This document shows positions 55,550 through 63,388 of a DNA stretch of 64,000 nucleotides, piece after piece. Below the pieces are notes generated by a model, which made no database searches, was not told the DNA's origin, and saw only the letters and a program-made list of their open reading frames with translations. The position numbers and the translations under genes are program-made. The stretch comes from Escherichia phage vB_EcoM_AYO145A. Numbering within the stretch: position 1 is the first letter of the stretch; each line of letters starts with the position of its first letter. The stretch is taken from sequence record KR014248. One strand, given 5' to 3'.

Positions 55550-57694
55550 ATGAACAAAGTACAGATTATTAAAAAGAATGGCTCACTTGAAGAACCTGAT
55601 ATCAAAAAAGTTTTAGCAGCAGTAACTAAGTCAGCTAACAGGGTTGGGTATAAAGAACTTCCACCAGATGTTACCCAAGCTCTTGAGTCAGCATTTATGA
55701 GGATTCTGGTAAAGTCCACTAAGCAGAATAATTTGCTCATCTCGGTAAATGACATTCACAGTATTGTTGAGGGTGCTTTGGCAGAAGTCAATCACGAGAT
55801 TTACGAGTCTTACTCAACATATAGAAATTACCGTAAAGAGGTTGCTCAAAATTGGGATGAGCTTTACCAAAAGACTAAAGACACACTCTTCTTAGGTGAC
55901 CGTGAAAATGCTAACTTTGACAGCAGTTTAATTTCTACAAAAGGTTCAATTATTCGTGGCTATCTGACTAAAGAAATCTTTAAACAATACCATTTAACAC
56001 CAGAGGAACTCGAAGCCATTGAAAAAGGGTTTATCTACATCCATGACTTAAGAGACCTAATTTTTGGTGGTATCAACTGTTGCCTGTTTGACATCGGTAA
56101 AGTACTGAAAGGTGGCTTTGAAATGTCTGGCATTGAATACTGTGAACCGAAGTCTGTGCTGTCAGCCTTACAGGTTATTGGTGATGTAGTTCTTTCAGCA
56201 ACTGCACAGCAATTTGGTGGATTTACTTTAGCAGAGATTGATAAGGTGCTTGTACCGTATGCTAAGAAGTCTCTACGCTATCATGCTGAGAAAGCAGCAT
56301 CTTACGGTATTCCTAAAGAACATTACCATAACTATGTCATGGAGCAGCTACAGATTGAATTAACTCAAGGCTTCCAGTCACTAGAGATGAAGCTAAATAC
56401 TGTACCTTGTAGCCGTGGTGATTTCGCATTCACAACTTTAACATTTGGTTTACTTGACTCAGATATGTCTAATGAAGACAACCGACTACAATACATGATT
56501 GCAAACACTATTCTTGATGTTCGCATGAATGGACAAGGTAAGAGCAAGAAGCCTGTTGTATTCCCTAAACTGGTTTATATTCATGACCAGAAGAGACACG
56601 ATGAGAATATCTGTCAAGGTCAACTGTACAGTAAAGCTATTGAGTGTTGCTCTAAAGCAATGTATCCAGATTTCTTAAGCGTCTCTGGTCATGGTGCTGT
56701 AGCAGAAGCTTTTGAGCGTTCTGGCAAGGTAATTTCACCGATGGGTTGCAGAGCCTTCTTATCTCCATATCTTAATGAGGATGGGGAAGAGTTCTATGTT
56801 GGTCGTGCTAACATTGGTGCTGTATCTTTGAACTTACCAATGATTTACCAGTATTCTAAAGAGAATGGTTTAGATTTCTGGAAAGAGCTTGATAAGTACC
56901 TAGAGATGATTCGCAGCTTCCACAAGAAACGCTACGAAATGATTGCTAACATGCCAGCAAGTTCTAACCCTCTGGCATTCACACAAGGTGGTCTGTACAA
57001 AGGGACTAAGAAACCTACTGACAAGGTTGGTTGGGATATCGTGAAGTCCTTCACAGCTTCTTTTGGGGTTACTGCGCTTGATGAACTATCTGTTCTTGCT
57101 GAAGGTAAACGACTTCATGAAGTTGGAAGTTCTAGTTTTGCATACGATGTTCTGGCATACATTAACATGAAAACTGAAGAGTTTAAGAATGAAGATGGCT
57201 TCCTGTATGCAGTATATGGCACTCCAGCAGAGTCATTGTGTGGAACTCAGCTAAAACAGTTCAGAGATATGTTTGGCGTTATCAAAGGAGTTTCTGATAA
57301 GGAATATTTTACAAACAGTTTCCATATGAATGTTGCAGCAGATATCTCACCATTTGAGAAGCAGGACTTAGAAGAGCCATTCTTCCATATCTGTAGAGGC
57401 GGCAGAATCCAGTATGTGAGGGTAGCTAACCCAGAAAACTTACCAGCACTTAAAAGTTGTATTACAAGAGGGATGTTGAAAGGTTTTTATCAGGGACTTA
57501 ACTTTGACTTAGCAATCTGTGAGCATTGTGGTAACAGACCAAAGGCTGATGTTGAAGAATGTGAGGTTTGCCATTCACATGATATTTCTGTGATTAACAG
57601 GGTGTGTGGTTATCTTGGATGGACTAAGATTAAAGGCGAATCCCGAATGAACGATGCAAAAATTGCTGAGATTCGTGACAGAATCTCTATGTAA
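55550..57694 (+). CDS. nrdD: anaerobic ribonucleoside-triphosphate reductase
   Basis: ATP-cone N-terminus; C-terminal Cys cluster and glycyl-radical motif RVCGYLG. Confidence 0.85.
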   Translation: MNKVQIIKKNGSLEEPDIKKVLAAVTKSANRVGYKELPPDVTQALESAFMRILVKSTKQNNLLISVNDIHSIVEGALAEVNHEIYESYSTYRNYRKEVAQNWDELYQKTKDTLFLGDRENANFDSSLISTKGSIIRGYLTKEIFKQYHLTPEELEAIEKGFIYIHDLRDLIFGGINCCLFDIGKVLKGGFEMSGIEYCEPKSVLSALQVIGDVVLSATAQQFGGFTLAEIDKVLVPYAKKSLRYHAEKAASYGIPKEHYHNYVMEQLQIELTQGFQSLEMKLNTVPCSRGDFAFTTLTFGLLDSDMSNEDNRLQYMIANTILDVRMNGQGKSKKPVVFPKLVYIHDQKRHDENICQGQLYSKAIECCSKAMYPDFLSVSGHGAVAEAFERSGKVISPMGCRAFLSPYLNEDGEEFYVGRANIGAVSLNLPMIYQYSKENGLDFWKELDKYLEMIRSFHKKRYEMIANMPASSNPLAFTQGGLYKGTKKPTDKVGWDIVKSFTASFGVTALDELSVLAEGKRLHEVGSSSFAYDVLAYINMKTEEFKNEDGFLYAVYGTPAESLCGTQLKQFRDMFGVIKGVSDKEYFTNSFHMNVAADISPFEKQDLEEPFFHICRGGRIQYVRVANPENLPALKSCITRGMLKGFYQGLNFDLAICEHCGNRPKADVEECEVCHSHDISVINRVCGYLGWTKIKGESRMNDAKIAEIRDRISM

Positions 57695-59465: not shown

Positions 59466-59786
59466 ATGAGCAAAGTTTATAACACTCGTAAATTACAGAT
59501 TTTCGTACTGTGCCAATTTATGGCTAAAGAGTATAACTACTACTATTGTGGTACAGGGTTCATTAGTGACAATGATGGTTCATACCTACCATTCAAAGAG
59601 GCTGTAAAACTCTTCAATGAAGAGAAAAGCTCTAAGAAAGATATTGAAAAGGTCAAGCTAACCTACAGCAAGAAAGATAAGAAGATTATCTGCCTAGATA
59701 ACTTTGTAAAAGTTACTGGAGAAGCAAAAGAGTTTATGGATGAGAGTGAAATCTCATTCACAAGCATCTTGAAAGTAGCTCAGTAA
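59466..59786 (+). CDS. hypothetical protein
   Basis: ORF track. Confidence 0.45.
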   Translation: MSKVYNTRKLQIFVLCQFMAKEYNYYYCGTGFISDNDGSYLPFKEAVKLFNEEKSSKKDIEKVKLTYSKKDKKIICLDNFVKVTGEAKEFMDESEISFTSILKVAQ

Positions 59787-59797
59787 ACAGATACTAT

Positions 59798-59827
59798 AAG
59801 GGGACTGTAAAGGTTCCCTTTTTTTAT
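59798..59827 (+). terminator. rho-independent terminator
   Basis: Imperfect hairpin followed by T8 run. Confidence 0.45.
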
Positions 59828-59839
59828 TTTGGAGATAAT

Positions 59840-60355
59840 ATGTATCTGTCAAATCTGAAACGTTCTGCTGCAATGTCTGTCCTAAGACTGAGCTTTGAGG
59901 AACGTCAAGAGTTCATTGACTCCCACCAATATGACCCTTCTAACTCTAATCACATGATTCTCTGGAATCGTGATAGTACTCGTGAAAGAGCACTATTCCG
60001 CTATTACCCACATTACACCATAGATAACCTGTATGAATGTTTTGTTGTGAAGAACACCATTACAGTACTCAATAAACTTTGCAGATATACAGGTAGTCAA
60101 TCCTTCACATTAGGCCACCACAAACCTGTTACAAAGGGTGGTGAGCACCACTGTGCAAACTGGTTTATCCAGACTAAACTTGATAACCAGAAGCAAGGGG
60201 ATAATCTTTTAAGCACCCCTAAGATGACCTATGAAGAGCAAGAGAAATATATCAAAAATAATATGCCAGATGTGCTTGACAACAACTATACAGATTTGGC
60301 AATATCTCTCCTGTTGAAGTTCGAGACAGTTTATAGGGCAACTTACAATGGCTAA
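59840..60355 (+). CDS. hypothetical protein
   Basis: ORF track. Confidence 0.5.
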   Translation: MYLSNLKRSAAMSVLRLSFEERQEFIDSHQYDPSNSNHMILWNRDSTRERALFRYYPHYTIDNLYECFVVKNTITVLNKLCRYTGSQSFTLGHHKPVTKGGEHHCANWFIQTKLDNQKQGDNLLSTPKMTYEEQEKYIKNNMPDVLDNNYTDLAISLLLKFETVYRATYNG

Positions 60356-60626
60356 AGAGAAGTGGGAGATTCTACCATTAGTGAGTGAAGGTGGTAACGG
60401 CTGTGAGATGTACATGATACGTGGTCATGTCCCAGAACCAATTGCACTTGAGATGGTAAACAATTTTACAGATGGCTCTTACAAAGATTTAGGAGAGCCA
60501 ACTATAAAGCATCAATGGGTCAAACCTGTACCAGACAGCACAGGTAACTGTAGTGTACTTTATCACGTTGTAGACCCTGCAAAATGCAAATCTGCAATGG
60601 CAGTAACAAACATAACCTTTGATTGA
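60348..60626 (+). CDS. hypothetical protein
   Basis: ORF track. Confidence 0.45.
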   Translation: MAKEKWEILPLVSEGGNGCEMYMIRGHVPEPIALEMVNNFTDGSYKDLGEPTIKHQWVKPVPDSTGNCSVLYHVVDPAKCKSAMAVTNITFD

Positions 60627-60639
60627 GAGAGAGAAAACT

Positions 60640-61521
60640 ATGAAAACTGTTATTGAAGTCGTTGTCACCGCACAAGAGAAATTCTTCCACACAGAAAAAT
60701 TTAATATCATCCAATTCCCATCTGGAGAAATTGGTGGAAACTTCTCTGAAGATTTTGTTAAGTTTACTGAGCGTAATGCTGGTAAGATTGACAATGTTAT
60801 ACTTACTGTGCAGGGATATGATAAAGATACACTGTTTGCATTAGCTTTGGCTAAGGATGCCGTTGACAGCCTTGTTCCATATAAATCAGCGATGAAAACC
60901 GTTGTTTTCGGGTTCTTACCGAATGCTCGATATGACCGCCATATGTTCAAAGGCGATTCAGCAGCACTAAAAGCTTTTGCCAACCTCGTTAATGCAATGG
61001 GCTTTGATGCAGTATGTGCTCTTGACCCTCACAGTAATGTTGCAGAAAACTTATTTAAGTGCTTCCAAAGCATGAAGCAAAAAGATGTGGCAGTACACTT
61101 TGCAAGTGACCCACGCATTGATTTCTTGGTAGCCCCAGATGCAGGTGCAGCTAAGAAGACTGAAGAGACTGCTAAAGAGGTGGATAAACCATACATCACA
61201 ATGTCTAAAGTACGTAACCTTAAGACTGGTGAAATTACTGGTATGCGAATCCTTGATGATGTTGATTTGACCGATAAAACTGTCATGATTCTCGATGATA
61301 TCTGTGATGGTGGTCGAACCTTCATAGAAGCAGCTAAACATCTTCGTGAAGCAGGTGCAAAACGTGTGGAACTCTATGTAACTCATGGCATTTTCTCTAA
61401 AGGTGTTGAAAACTTACTTGACAATGGTATTGACCATATCTACACTACAAACTCTTTAGGGGAAGCTAAAGACCGTGGCTTAACACATTATGCCCAAGTT
61501 ACTGTAATTACCATTGATTGA
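60640..61521 (+). CDS. prs: ribose-phosphate pyrophosphokinase-like phosphoribosyltransferase
   Basis: PRPP-binding motif MILDDICDGGRT; start at ATG 60640 (MKTVIEVVV) after upstream stop at 60626. Confidence 0.6.
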   Translation: MKTVIEVVVTAQEKFFHTEKFNIIQFPSGEIGGNFSEDFVKFTERNAGKIDNVILTVQGYDKDTLFALALAKDAVDSLVPYKSAMKTVVFGFLPNARYDRHMFKGDSAALKAFANLVNAMGFDAVCALDPHSNVAENLFKCFQSMKQKDVAVHFASDPRIDFLVAPDAGAAKKTEETAKEVDKPYITMSKVRNLKTGEITGMRILDDVDLTDKTVMILDDICDGGRTFIEAAKHLREAGAKRVELYVTHGIFSKGVENLLDNGIDHIYTTNSLGEAKDRGLTHYAQVTVITID

Positions 61522-61530
61522 AACTTTATA

Positions 61531-61552
61531 GGGGGCTTCAAAGCCCCATTTT
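61531..61552 (+). terminator. hairpin (GGGGCTT...AAGCCCC) between prs-like and NAMPT genes
   Basis: Stem read from sequence; weak T tract. Confidence 0.35.
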
Positions 61553-61568
61553 GAGAGAGATTAAAAAG

Positions 61569-63350
61569 ATGACTAAATCACTTTATGCAGTACCAGCAGG
61601 TTTAAACGCGGATGCTTACAAATCTGGCCATATTTATCAGTATCCTAGTGCAACAGAGTACCTAATGTTCAACCTGACACCACGTAGTGATAAATGGTTT
61701 AACAGCCCTTTAGCAATTGACGGTGTAGTTGCTTTTGGTATTCAACGTTTTGTTAAAGATTACCTGATAGACCACTGGAACGCCACCTTCTTCGAACGTG
61801 ACAAAAAAGAAGCAATTGATGAAATCTTAGAAGTCATGAACGGCGTTCTGGGTAAAGATGCTATTGGTCGAGAACATTGGGAAGCACTCCACGACTTAGG
61901 TTATCTACCAGTTGAAGTCTACGCTGTAGAAGAAGGTACAGTTGTCCCTATGCGTGTGCCAATGATTGTCTTCCAGAACACTGTTTCAGGTTTCCATTGG
62001 GTAGCGGGGTATCTGGAAGATGCTTTCTCTGCTGAGATTTGGAAGGCTTGTACCATTGCAACTATTGCATTGCACTACAAACGTATCTGTAAGAAGTGGG
62101 CTGACCTTACTTGTGACAACGACTTGCATTTACCTTATCAGTGCCATGACTTTGCTATGCGTGGTATGTCTGGCTTTACTGATGACGCATTTAACGCTGT
62201 AGGTCACTTAACCAGCTTTAAAGGAACTGACAGCTTCCCTGCTGTGTATACAGCTAAACGCATCTATGGACAGTCCTACCCAATCTCTGATATTGGTAGT
62301 TCTGTGCCAGCCACTGAACACTCTGTAATGTGTGCAAACATTGCTTGGGAAGGTGGTAATGAGTTAATTGAAGATGAAAGACGTTTTAAAGGTGAGTTAC
62401 AAACCTTCCGTCGCTTCTTAACAGAAACTTACCCAACTGGTATTGCAAGTGTTGTTTCAGATACTTATAATTTCTGGAGAACTGTATCAGTCATATTGCC
62501 AGAACTCCGTAAAGAGATTATGGAACGAAATGGCAAACTGGTAATTCGTCCTGATTCTGGAGACCCTGTACATATTGTCACAGGATACAAAGCAATCCAT
62601 CTAGAGTGTGCTAAAAAGGCTTATTACGAACACTTAAGCAAGCTGGAAGCCAGCGACACAATGTTGAATGCTGTTCTGAACATGAAGCTTGAAAACATCA
62701 ATTATGGTATTGCTGGATGGCTACTGTCAGAAGGCTACGAAATGGTTGTTGACAGAGAAGACTTTGAAGTTGCTGATACAGTGCTGTTGAAAAACGCTTA
62801 TATGGTTGGTTCTGCAAACGTTGTAACACGTCCTGTAGCGGAGATTGATGGAGCTATCAAGACACTGTATAACATCTTTGGGGGAACTATCAACTCTAAA
62901 GGCTTTAAAGTACTGGATGAGCATATTGGGCTTATTTATGGCGACTCTATCACGTTGGAACGTGCAAACGAAATACTGAAGCGTTTGTATGAAATGGGTT
63001 TTGCAAGCTCTAACGTAGTGTTTGGTGTAGGTTCTTACACTTACCAGTACATGACTCGTGACACCTTTGCATTTGCTGTCAAAGCAACTCTTGCAAGCAT
63101 TGGTGGTAAAGAGATTATGCTTGCAAAAGACCCTAAAACAGATAGTGGTGTTAAGAAGTCTGCTTTTGGTGGTGTAGCACCCATGTGGGATGGTGAGAAT
63201 CTGAAAGCTGTAGATGGCTATGGGTTCCAGAGCTTTGCAGATGCACTTGAACATCCAGCTTGTGCTTTACGTTTAGTCTTTAGCGACTCTGAGCAGTTCG
63301 GCTACACAACTCTTGGTGATATTCGAAATAATATTGACAAGCAGCTTTAA
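61569..63350 (+). CDS. nadV: nicotinamide phosphoribosyltransferase (NAMPT/NadV)
   Basis: Matches recalled NAMPT motifs (ADAYK, HDFAMRG, SVPATEHSV, VVSDTYNFW, IRPDSGDP); start at ATG 61569 because ORF-track start 61518 overlaps hairpin. Confidence 0.85.
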   Translation: MTKSLYAVPAGLNADAYKSGHIYQYPSATEYLMFNLTPRSDKWFNSPLAIDGVVAFGIQRFVKDYLIDHWNATFFERDKKEAIDEILEVMNGVLGKDAIGREHWEALHDLGYLPVEVYAVEEGTVVPMRVPMIVFQNTVSGFHWVAGYLEDAFSAEIWKACTIATIALHYKRICKKWADLTCDNDLHLPYQCHDFAMRGMSGFTDDAFNAVGHLTSFKGTDSFPAVYTAKRIYGQSYPISDIGSSVPATEHSVMCANIAWEGGNELIEDERRFKGELQTFRRFLTETYPTGIASVVSDTYNFWRTVSVILPELRKEIMERNGKLVIRPDSGDPVHIVTGYKAIHLECAKKAYYEHLSKLEASDTMLNAVLNMKLENINYGIAGWLLSEGYEMVVDREDFEVADTVLLKNAYMVGSANVVTRPVAEIDGAIKTLYNIFGGTINSKGFKVLDEHIGLIYGDSITLERANEILKRLYEMGFASSNVVFGVGSYTYQYMTRDTFAFAVKATLASIGGKEIMLAKDPKTDSGVKKSAFGGVAPMWDGENLKAVDGYGFQSFADALEHPACALRLVFSDSEQFGYTTLGDIRNNIDKQL

Positions 63351-63363
63351 AAGTATATGATAA

Positions 63364-63388
63364 GAGGCTCCTACGGGAGCCTTTTTAA
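63364..63388 (+). terminator. rho-independent terminator (AGGCTCC-TACG-GGAGCCT + TTTTT)
   Basis: Perfect stem, tetraloop, T-run. Confidence 0.65.

Follow-up and report, generated by a model that had tools for sequence, protein, structure and literature searches.

The closest described relative of the locus analysed here is in Escherichia phage JohannRWettstein (Bas63), in whose genes gp79-gp80 NARP1 (NAD+ reconstitution pathway 1) was discovered in 2024 (bioRxiv 10.1101/2024.02.11.579819). In NARP1, Adps pyrophosphorylates ADP-ribose with ATP, and Namat swaps the pyrophosphate for nicotinamide, yielding NAD+ directly. Deletion of genes 79-80 renders Bas63 sensitive to SIR2-HerA and deepens NAD+ depletion (bioRxiv 10.1101/2024.02.11.579819). 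Osterman et al. started from an annotation-based PRPP/NMN hypothesis for the two genes, and then rejected it: Bas63 still escapes SIR2-HerA in a host that lacks pncC and nadR and cannot use NMN; and infected cells show a mass assigned to ADPR-PP if the phage has both genes, but not otherwise (bioRxiv 10.1101/2024.02.11.579819). In the independent PhageMaP study, deletion of either g79 or g80 results in a 10^4-10^6 plating drop on Sir2-HerA cells, which complementation restores (10.1101/2024.10.10.617714).

The in vitro reactions and the structures come from more distant homologues only, those of SPbetaL1 and ICP1 (PMC12774641; PMC13586617); the Bas63 gp79 protein purified poorly, according to the authors (bioRxiv 10.1101/2024.02.11.579819). 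The purified SPbetaL1 homologue of gp79 gives a product with ADPR and ATP and none in the control (ribose-5-phosphate, according to the Fig. 2D legend), while the homologue of gp80 produces NAD+ from ADPR-PP, which it prefers over PRPP. Bas63 gp79 and gp80 served as the seeds for the published Adps and Namat clades (same preprint).

Escherichia phage vB_EcoM_AYO145A (sequence record KR014248) belongs to the same genus as Bas63, Felixounavirus (Felix O1-like). In the 64,000-nucleotide stretch that we analysed (the window), it carries a gene pair that we read, with a probability of about 0.9, as NARP1, a two-enzyme phage counter-defence pathway. According to this reading, a host immune effector of the SIR2, TIR or SEFIR type would cleave NAD+ into ADP-ribose and nicotinamide; Adps would then take the beta-gamma pyrophosphate from ATP and attach it to the terminal ribose of ADP-ribose, at the 1'' hydroxyl, producing ADPR-PP and AMP; and Namat would displace the pyrophosphate of ADPR-PP with nicotinamide, restoring NAD+ in one step. 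PRPP, NMN and a host NMN adenylyltransferase would not be needed. By analogy, we infer that the Adps and Namat of this phage perform the same reactions as their homologues. The system is real, but it is already known.

An earlier note on this DNA, made from the sequence alone, had pointed to two adjacent genes at 60640-63350, and two plus-strand ORFs, 47 nt apart, occupy exactly that span. As listed, the adps ORF starts with a TTG at 60619; the ATG at 60640 is preceded by a GAGAGAG ribosome-binding-like stretch and agrees with the Bas63 annotation (293 aa). Similarly, the namat ORF is listed from 61518, and the ATG at 61569, also behind GAGAGAG, gives a protein of 593 aa, as annotated in Bas63. 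Two minus-strand ORFs, of 164 aa and 175 aa, lie wholly inside these strongly supported plus-strand genes. Coordinates of all features are collected in Table 1.

Table 1. Features of the adps-namat locus and its surroundings (window coordinates).
Feature	Coordinates	Strand	Remarks
Promoter-like site and immediate terminator-like hairpin	59769..59820	+	Upstream boundary of gene block; architecture same as downstream cassette
Two small genes, 171 aa and 92 aa	59840..60626	+	Between upstream cassette and adps; phrog_3500, phrog_4726 (function unknown)
adps, predicted ADP-ribose pyrophosphate synthetase (PRPS-like)	60640..61521	+	293 aa; stop codon ends at 61521
Adps Lys190 codon	61207..61209	+	Alignment: equivalent to catalytic Lys185 (ICP1), Lys162 (SPbetaL1)
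Adps DDICDGGRT (aa 219-227), predicted ribose-binding Asp pair and PP loop	61294..61320	+	Alignment with ICP1
Intergenic hairpin GGGGCU-UCAA-AGCCCC, then AUUUUGAGAGAG	61531..61547	+	Between adps and namat
namat, predicted nicotinamide ADP-ribose transferase (NAMPT-like)	61569..63350	+	593 aa; stop ends at 63350
Namat putative clamp-loop residues Lys42-Trp43	61692..61697	+	Align with SPbetaL1 R40-V41
Second variable insertion site in Namat, smaller than that at aa 340-424 (aa 258-275, 15 extra residues)	62340..62393	+	Alignment
Lineage-specific predicted alpha/beta insertion in Namat (aa 340-424, ~85 aa)	62586..62840	+	Alignment gaps
Namat clamp-helix signature GSYTYQYMTRD (aa 488-498)	63030..63062	+	Fits published Namat consensus
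Promoter-like site (11/12 matches) and terminator-like hairpin	63334..63385	+	Just past namat stop

Compared with the Bas63 reference record (MZ501086), the two loci agree in gene order, lengths, neighbours, spacing, intergenic hairpin and Namat insertions. Adps is identical to gp79 at 282 of 293 positions (96%) and Namat to gp80 at 578 of 593 (97%), both over the full length and with no gaps. What sets the proteins apart is 11 substitutions in gp79 and 15 in gp80, none of them on residues named as catalytic or clamp residues in the papers. The resemblance to the NARP1 systems of SPbetaL1 and ICP1 extends to the adjacent adps and namat genes, the catalytic lysine, the acceptor pocket, the PP loop, the Namat core and the clamp-helix motif.

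The placement of the upstream gene in the Prs family with a type I PRTase loop, made in the earlier note, holds: the loop is DDICDGGRT (aa 219-227), and Adps matches TIGR01251 (ribose-phosphate diphosphokinase; 133.7 bits, cutoff 113), phrog_619 (E=2e-98), and Pfam PF00156 and PF14572. Taken alone, the profile search that the note had proposed for telling Prs from other PRTases answers Prs. The match is to TIGR01251, a broad subfamily model and the only Prs model to pass its cutoff; the NCBIfam equivalog-level Prs models all fall far under theirs, the best at 110 bits versus 296. The Pfam N-terminal Prs domain has no match in Adps at E<=0.01. A PDB chain sequence search with Adps returned canonical Prs entries only (best 4twb, E=1.4e-17). 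Because the ICP1 Adps structures of PMC13586617 are missing from these matches, residues were mapped by alignment to the ICP1 gene itself.

Adps is 31% identical to ICP1 Adps and 30% to SPbetaL1 Adps, both biochemically characterised, and 24% to E. coli Prs. In the characterised proteins the catalytic lysine (ICP1 K185, SPbetaL1 K162) sits on a beta-hairpin, and its mutation abolishes ADPR-PP formation (PMC13586617; bioRxiv 10.1101/2024.02.11.579819); the equivalent here is Lys190. DDICDGGRT aligns with ICP1 D212, D213 and I214 and with the PP loop C215-S220, the roles of the Asp pair and PP loop residues being described in PMC13586617. The acceptor pocket is kept, with Adps R97, H131, D167, D219, D220 and D223 corresponding to ICP1 R87, H121, D161, D212, D213 and D216, as is one adenine contact (F26, ICP1 F18). 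A second adenine contact, ICP1 F92, is replaced by Met102, with Phe103 next to it, so that 7 of the 8 ICP1 pocket and adenine-contact residues are identical in the alignment; ICP1 F223 is likewise not conserved.

Adps shares with E. coli Prs the two-domain PRPS fold family and the equivalents of R96, H131, D170 and D220-D221. Unlike in E. coli Prs, the flexible-loop arginines R100, R102 and R105 are H, F and D in Adps, and the C-terminal segment is missing: in the sequence alignment alone, Adps ends at column 324 of 337, with a 9-column gap where Prs runs on. Lack of the canonical PRPS C-terminal alpha11-alpha12 module is a published feature of Adps enzymes (PMC13586617), and the substrate of the characterised homologues is different from that of Prs.

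Namat is, as the earlier note had it, a NAMPT homologue: it matches NF006629 with 468 bits (cutoff 405), phrog_448 (E=3e-202), and Pfam PF04095 and PF18127. Judged by these profiles, the assignment of the two proteins to the Prs and NAMPT families is far beyond chance. Among PDB sequences, the solved proteins closest to Namat are 9w5w/9w5x, two entries for SPbetaL1 Namat (E=1.5e-127), and its identity to SPbetaL1 and ICP1 Namat is 46-47%. We built an AlphaFold model from a 67-sequence alignment (pLDDT 93.4); a Foldseek search with it ranks the Namat chains of 9w5x/9w5w first, at target TM-scores of 0.93-0.95, and Namat crystal structures rank above H. ducreyi NadV and human NAMPT. Alignment shows the catalytic core to be kept: D15, Y17, F195, R198, D221, H251, R327 and D329 correspond to SPbetaL1 D13, Y15, F189, R192, D215, H245, R306 and D308.

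Two elements of the adenine clamp can be compared. In Namat enzymes the clamp loop provides a stacking residue, either an Arg or the residue that comes after a Lys or Tyr. The clamp loop here has Lys-Trp instead of the Arg of SPbetaL1; a Lys at this position is also found in Bas63 Namat, where the following residue stacks on adenine (PMC12774641). The clamp helix carries GSYTYQYMTRD, which fits the published Namat consensus, GS-X-phi-X-phi-X-phi-TRD, in which motif positions 3 and 7 are aromatic (PMC12774641). The GS...TRD frame is present in 66 of 66 aligned homologues, position 7 being mostly aromatic and Met or His in a few. The true NAMPT HdNadV (9ke8) has GAQTYQRNTRD at the same place, without the Namat motif.

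Spelt out, the chemistry suggested by the earlier note would have a true ribose-phosphate diphosphokinase raise PRPP and a true NAMPT make NMN, which host NadR, or PncC with NadD and NadE, would convert to NAD+. Public records annotate the genes in this way, TIGR01251 and NF006629 are both above cutoff and Adps keeps the Prs-type catalytic residues; nevertheless, we consider this chemistry highly improbable. It was rejected by experiments on the 96-97% identical Bas63 orthologues, namely the escape from SIR2-HerA without host pncC and nadR and the detection of ADPR-PP, and the SPbetaL1 homologue yields product only with ADPR and ATP (bioRxiv 10.1101/2024.02.11.579819); the Prs equivalog scores and the presence of the Namat adenine-clamp motif, which HdNadV lacks, also argue against it. 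The broader part of the proposal holds: the pair serves to restore NAD+ in infected cells and is linked to NAD+-depleting defences. As grounds for refutation the note had named loss of the Prs N-terminal domain and catalytic residues, or of the NAMPT catalytic residues; Adps has a Prs-like N-terminal half and the catalytic residues, and Namat keeps the Asp, His and Arg, so these checks would not have caught the wrong chemistry.

Several observations count against NARP1: the characterised homologues are only 30-31% (Adps) and 46% (Namat) identical to the proteins of this phage, the adenine contact ICP1 F92 is Met102 in Adps, although Phe103 follows, and generic profiles place the two proteins above cutoffs as Prs and as NAPRT/NAMPT.

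SPbetaL1 Namat is also capable of making NMN from PRPP in vitro (bioRxiv 10.1101/2024.02.11.579819), and given this, Namat of our phage may have some NAMPT-type activity. A dual use, in which NARP1 is accompanied by physiologically relevant synthesis of NMN from host PRPP via Namat, boosting NAD+ without ADP-ribose, would fit the weaker effects of g79 and g80 in PhageMaP against retron Ec86 and hhe, neither of them a classical NADase (10.1101/2024.10.10.617714). We regard it as very unlikely: when ADPR-PP and PRPP are both supplied, NAD+ alone is detected, and NARP1 phages, unlike NARP2 phages, do not overproduce NAD+ in defence-free cells (bioRxiv 10.1101/2024.02.11.579819).

NARP2, found in Vibrio phage KVP40, and canonical NadV/NAMPT (9ke8; human NAMPT) have in common with our pair the fold and catalytic core of the second enzyme and the goal of NAD+ restoration. 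Unlike the pair, they use PRPP and NMN and have neither an Adps partner nor the aromatic clamp-helix motif. A NARP2-type system here, that is, a true NAMPT with a phage NMN adenylyltransferase, a partner named in the earlier note, has a next to negligible chance of being correct. A NAMPT-family protein is indeed present, but the partner gene is Prs-like and not an NMN adenylyltransferase; no NMN adenylyltransferase is annotated among the Bas63 CDS at genome positions 35933-87100 (MZ501086); and Adps-associated Namat proteins form a clade apart from NARP2 NAMPTs (bioRxiv 10.1101/2024.02.11.579819). A six-frame scan of the window, a crude one and thus a weak negative, revealed neither an (H/T)xGH adenylyltransferase motif nor a Nudix box.

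Within NARP1, our preferred reading, there is a further variant, NARP1-AP of Vibrio phage Gary, consisting of Adps, the Macro-domain phosphatase Adpp and Namat (bioRxiv 10.64898/2026.01.28.702374). Our phage has the same two core enzymes but, unlike NARP1-AP, no Macro-domain match by Pfam or PHROGs in the two genes on each side of the pair. Since no Macro-domain phosphatase gene is adjacent, the gene content points to plain NARP1 and not NARP1-AP.

Unlike SPbetaL1 and ICP1 Namat, which lack both, Namat of this phage has an extra subdomain of ~85 aa (aa 340-424) and 15 residues within aa 258-275, a site that ranges from 8 to 46 aa across homologues. The model folds the ~85-aa insertion into an alpha/beta subdomain with high confidence (pLDDT about 93-97); short homologues have a 19-aa loop in its place. 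In a phage genome collection, tblastn with the segment found Ounavirinae-type records only, 252 in total. Searched alone, it gave nothing meaningful in Pfam (best E=0.041, below cutoff) and no match among PDB sequences (E=1). Its identity to phiSUSP1 is 42% versus 83% for the Namat core, and it diverges at roughly double the rate of the catalytic core. The main text of the two NARP1 structure papers (PMC12774641, PMC13586617) does not discuss it, and it is the only undescribed detail that we found at this locus. It is doubtful that the insertion is a functional module (for example an Adps docking surface, a regulatory element, or an arms-race surface against a Namat-targeting host factor) rather than neutral decoration.

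The pair sits within a block bounded by terminator-like hairpins, and the 171-aa and 92-aa genes upstream of adps are positional counterparts of Bas63 gp77 and gp78, with the same order and lengths. The adps-namat intergenic hairpin has a fold of -15.1 kcal/mol (z=-2.06), and a consensus terminator scan made no call on it. Across our phage, Bas63 and two Mooglevirus phages the loop changes whereas the stem is identical in all four, so covariation speaks neither for nor against a function of the hairpin.

As a finding the locus adds little, NARP1 having been found in 2024 in a phage of the same genus and structures of both enzyme types having since been published. It does carry a caution: standard profiles and motif logic both read 'Prs + NAMPT', and only experiment or newer sequence signatures reveal the ADP-ribose and ADPR-PP substrates. 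Most public records of these phages keep the old names, and re-annotation is therefore warranted. Finally, aRES leaves ADPR-1''-phosphate, and Adpp is a Macro-domain ADPR-1''-phosphate phosphatase (bioRxiv 10.64898/2026.01.28.702374); with no Macro-domain match in the two genes on either side of the pair, this phage is, by the published logic, predicted to be sensitive to aRES-type defence.

The window, a portion of a Felixounavirus genome, carries two plus-strand genes, adps and namat, whose ATG and stop positions coincide with the ends of the interval 60640-63350, so the earlier note had located them exactly. The ORF list starts adps at a TTG at 60619; we take the start at the ATG at 60640, because GAGAGAG precedes it and the resulting 293 aa equal the length annotated in Bas63 (Escherichia phage JohannRWettstein). 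A search with 3.1 kb around the pair matched 256 phage records, the top one being Escherichia phage KEP2 (98.7%).

Coordinates of features in and around the adps-namat pair
Feature	Window position	Strand	Details
adps	60640 (ATG) to 61521 (stop end)	+	293 aa
namat	61569 (ATG) to 63350	+	593 aa; GAGAGAG ahead of ATG
Small Namat insertion	62340-62393 (aa 258-275)	+	15 inserted residues; against SPbetaL1/ICP1 Namat alignment
Large Namat insertion	62586-62840 (aa 340-424)	+	~85 aa; against SPbetaL1/ICP1 Namat alignment
171-aa ORF	59840-60355	+	Bas63 gp77 counterpart by position, gene length and order; phrog_3500
Hairpin GGGGCU-UCAA-AGCCCC	61531-61547	+	6-bp GC-rich stem; in the 47-nt adps-namat gap
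Upstream cassette	59769-59820	+	promoter-like site, then terminator-like hairpin
Downstream cassette	63334-63385	+	promoter-like site, then terminator-like hairpin

The earlier note assigned the products to the Prs and NAMPT families, and the profiles agree. Adps matches TIGR01251 (ribose-phosphate diphosphokinase, broad level; 133.7 bits, cutoff 113), phrog_619 (E=2e-98), PF00156 and PF14572. The kinship to Prs holds at that broad level, but every equivalog-level model scores far below its cutoff (best 110 bits, cutoff 296); the profile search reported no N-terminal Prs domain of Pfam for Adps, which on alignment also ends before the C-terminal segment of E. coli Prs. The second protein clearly belongs to the NAMPT/NAPRT family (NF006629, 468 bits, cutoff 405; phrog_448, E=3e-202; PF04095 and PF18127).

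We conclude, with a probability of about 0.9 for the explanation as a whole, that the pair is NAD+ reconstitution pathway 1 (NARP1), first found in genes 79-80 of Bas63, a Felixounavirus (Osterman et al., bioRxiv 10.1101/2024.02.11.579819). Adps is 96% identical to Bas63 gp79 (293 aa; 282/293) and Namat 97% identical to gp80 (593 aa; 578/593), both gap-free, and the Bas63 genome (MZ501086) has the same neighbourhood: NrdD, NrdG, small ORFs, gp77 and gp78 ahead of the pair. The proteins of vB_EcoM_AYO145A would thus catalyse the two NARP1 reactions, Adps forming ADPR-pyrophosphate (ADPR-PP) from ADP-ribose and ATP, and Namat forming NAD+ from ADPR-PP and nicotinamide.

The earlier note had instead proposed salvage via PRPP and NMN, which was also the starting idea of Osterman et al., with Prs supplying PRPP, NAMPT producing NMN and the host completing the route (bioRxiv 10.1101/2024.02.11.579819). 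That chemistry has been superseded. Wild-type Bas63 still escapes the SIR2-HerA defence when the host has neither pncC nor nadR, and therefore NMN is not the relevant product; moreover, a new metabolite assigned to ADPR-PP is seen only when genes 79-80 are present (same preprint). The anti-defence context suggested in the note was correct: without genes 79-80 Bas63 is SIR2-HerA-sensitive, with deeper NAD+ loss (same preprint), and in an independent knockout screen removal of either gene cost 10^4-10^6 in plating on Sir2-HerA cells (10.1101/2024.10.10.617714). With the proteins of Bacillus phage SPbetaL1, the purified gp79 homologue is active on ADP-ribose and ATP, the control reaction giving no product, and the gp80 homologue converts ADPR-PP and nicotinamide to NAD+, which is the sole product when ADPR-PP and PRPP are supplied together (bioRxiv 10.1101/2024.02.11.579819).

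Two variants of the pathway were considered. Neither Pfam nor PHROGs gave a Macro-domain match in the genes flanking the pair, which therefore is NARP1 in its two-gene form rather than NARP1-AP, the version extended by a phosphatase. A crude scan for motifs in all six frames of the window returned no NMN adenylyltransferase or Nudix signature, consistent with the pair not being NARP2.

For Adps we applied the rules of the 2026 ICP1 enzyme structure paper (PMC13586617), mapping residues from an alignment of the window, Bas63, ICP1, SPbetaL1 and E. coli Prs sequences. Catalytic K185 of ICP1 (K162 in SPbetaL1) corresponds to window K190, and R87, H121, D161, D212/D213, D216 and F18 to R97, H131, D167, D219/D220, D223 and F26; the PP loop CDGAAS reads CDGGRT, and F92 aligns with M102, followed by F103. 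For Namat, the rules came from the 2026 SPbetaL1 enzyme structure paper (PMC12774641). Alignment to SPbetaL1 shows a complete catalytic core (D15, Y17, F195, R198, D221, H251, R327 and D329), including the catalytic Asp and His residues that the earlier note had named as a check. The diagnostic clamp-helix motif is GSYTYQYMTRD, with both adenine-stacking positions aromatic, whereas a true NAMPT from Haemophilus ducreyi (9ke8), the negative control, has GAQTYQRNTRD; the clamp loop is K42-W43, an arrangement described for Bas63 Namat (PMC12774641). An AlphaFold model built on a 67-homologue alignment (pLDDT 93.4) matches Namat crystal structures best, followed by H. ducreyi NadV and human NAMPT.

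The homologue search also returned many Namat-like proteins of ~496 aa (P0069-P0120; clamp motif GS[YF]TYQYNTRD), with genes on large chromosomal contigs of Klebsiella, Cronobacter, Kosakonia and Phytobacter, in agreement with the reported bacterial NARP1 homologues (PMC12774641). In Vibrio phage ICP1_2006_B, the gene annotated nadV (L005 3679-5172, 439 aa) is missing the opening ~56 residues of other Namats, clamp-loop region included, and a 37-aa 'hypothetical protein' ORF lies directly upstream; the shortness may reflect a mis-called start or frameshift in that record.

Ounavirinae Namat is ~100 aa longer than that of SPbetaL1 on alignment, and by sequence comparison both insertions are lineage-specific relative to SPbetaL1 and ICP1 Namat. 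In the phage collection the aa 340-424 block matches only Ounavirinae-type records (252); it has no relative by sequence in Pfam or PDB, and AlphaFold predicts a small alpha/beta subdomain with high confidence. Against Escherichia phage phiSUSP1 the block is 42% and the core 83% identical, a divergence about twice as fast. Across wider homologues the small site spans 8 to 46 aa and the large site 15 to 99 aa; the two look like an insertion-tolerant surface. A term search of the Namat structure paper (PMC12774641) found no mention of an insertion.

Downstream of the adps-namat hairpin come AUUUU and the GAGAGAG that resembles a ribosome-binding site for namat. Compared with Bas63 and two Mooglevirus phages, the stem stays the same while the loop varies; the hairpin may act as a partial terminator or as a processing site. 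The position that it occupies between adps and namat is taken in phiSUSP1 by an annotated putative homing endonuclease gene (L010 1046-1537). Window nrdD (anaerobic ribonucleotide reductase; 55550-57694) is a single unbroken 714-aa ORF, whereas the Bas63 annotation joins nrdD (L004 9530-12416) from two pieces and places a putative homing endonuclease gene inside it.

Two similar cassettes flank the gp77-gp78-adps-namat block, each made up of a sigma-70-like promoter (TTGA(C)AAG ... TAnnAT), an immediately adjoining AAGRGG...CCYTT hairpin that carries a T-run and, after it, a GGAG ribosome-binding site; scanning the window with a loose pattern built from the two found no further cassettes. Bas63 gp77, named GIY-YIG, is reported to counter retron Ec67 (PhageMaP preprint, 10.1101/2024.10.10.617714). 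For its 171-aa counterpart the sole, weak similarity was with an HNH endonuclease phrog (E=2.4e-4); an HHxxxxxGGxHH...N stretch is present in the protein. The block may represent clustered counter-defence genes.

For the window itself, the present analysis shows how the genes are laid out, that the pair is near-identical to that of Bas63, and that the diagnostic residues and the fold are conserved. Others demonstrated with the near-identical Bas63 proteins that the pair counters defence in vivo, that ADPR-PP is formed and that host NMN salvage is not needed (bioRxiv 10.1101/2024.02.11.579819); both reactions in vitro, the preference for substrates and the structures were shown only with distant homologues of 30-47% identity (bioRxiv 10.1101/2024.02.11.579819, PMC13586617, PMC12774641). 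The finding is real, its location is right and it has biological meaning, but it is already known: the pair is nearly identical to the example in which NARP1 was discovered.
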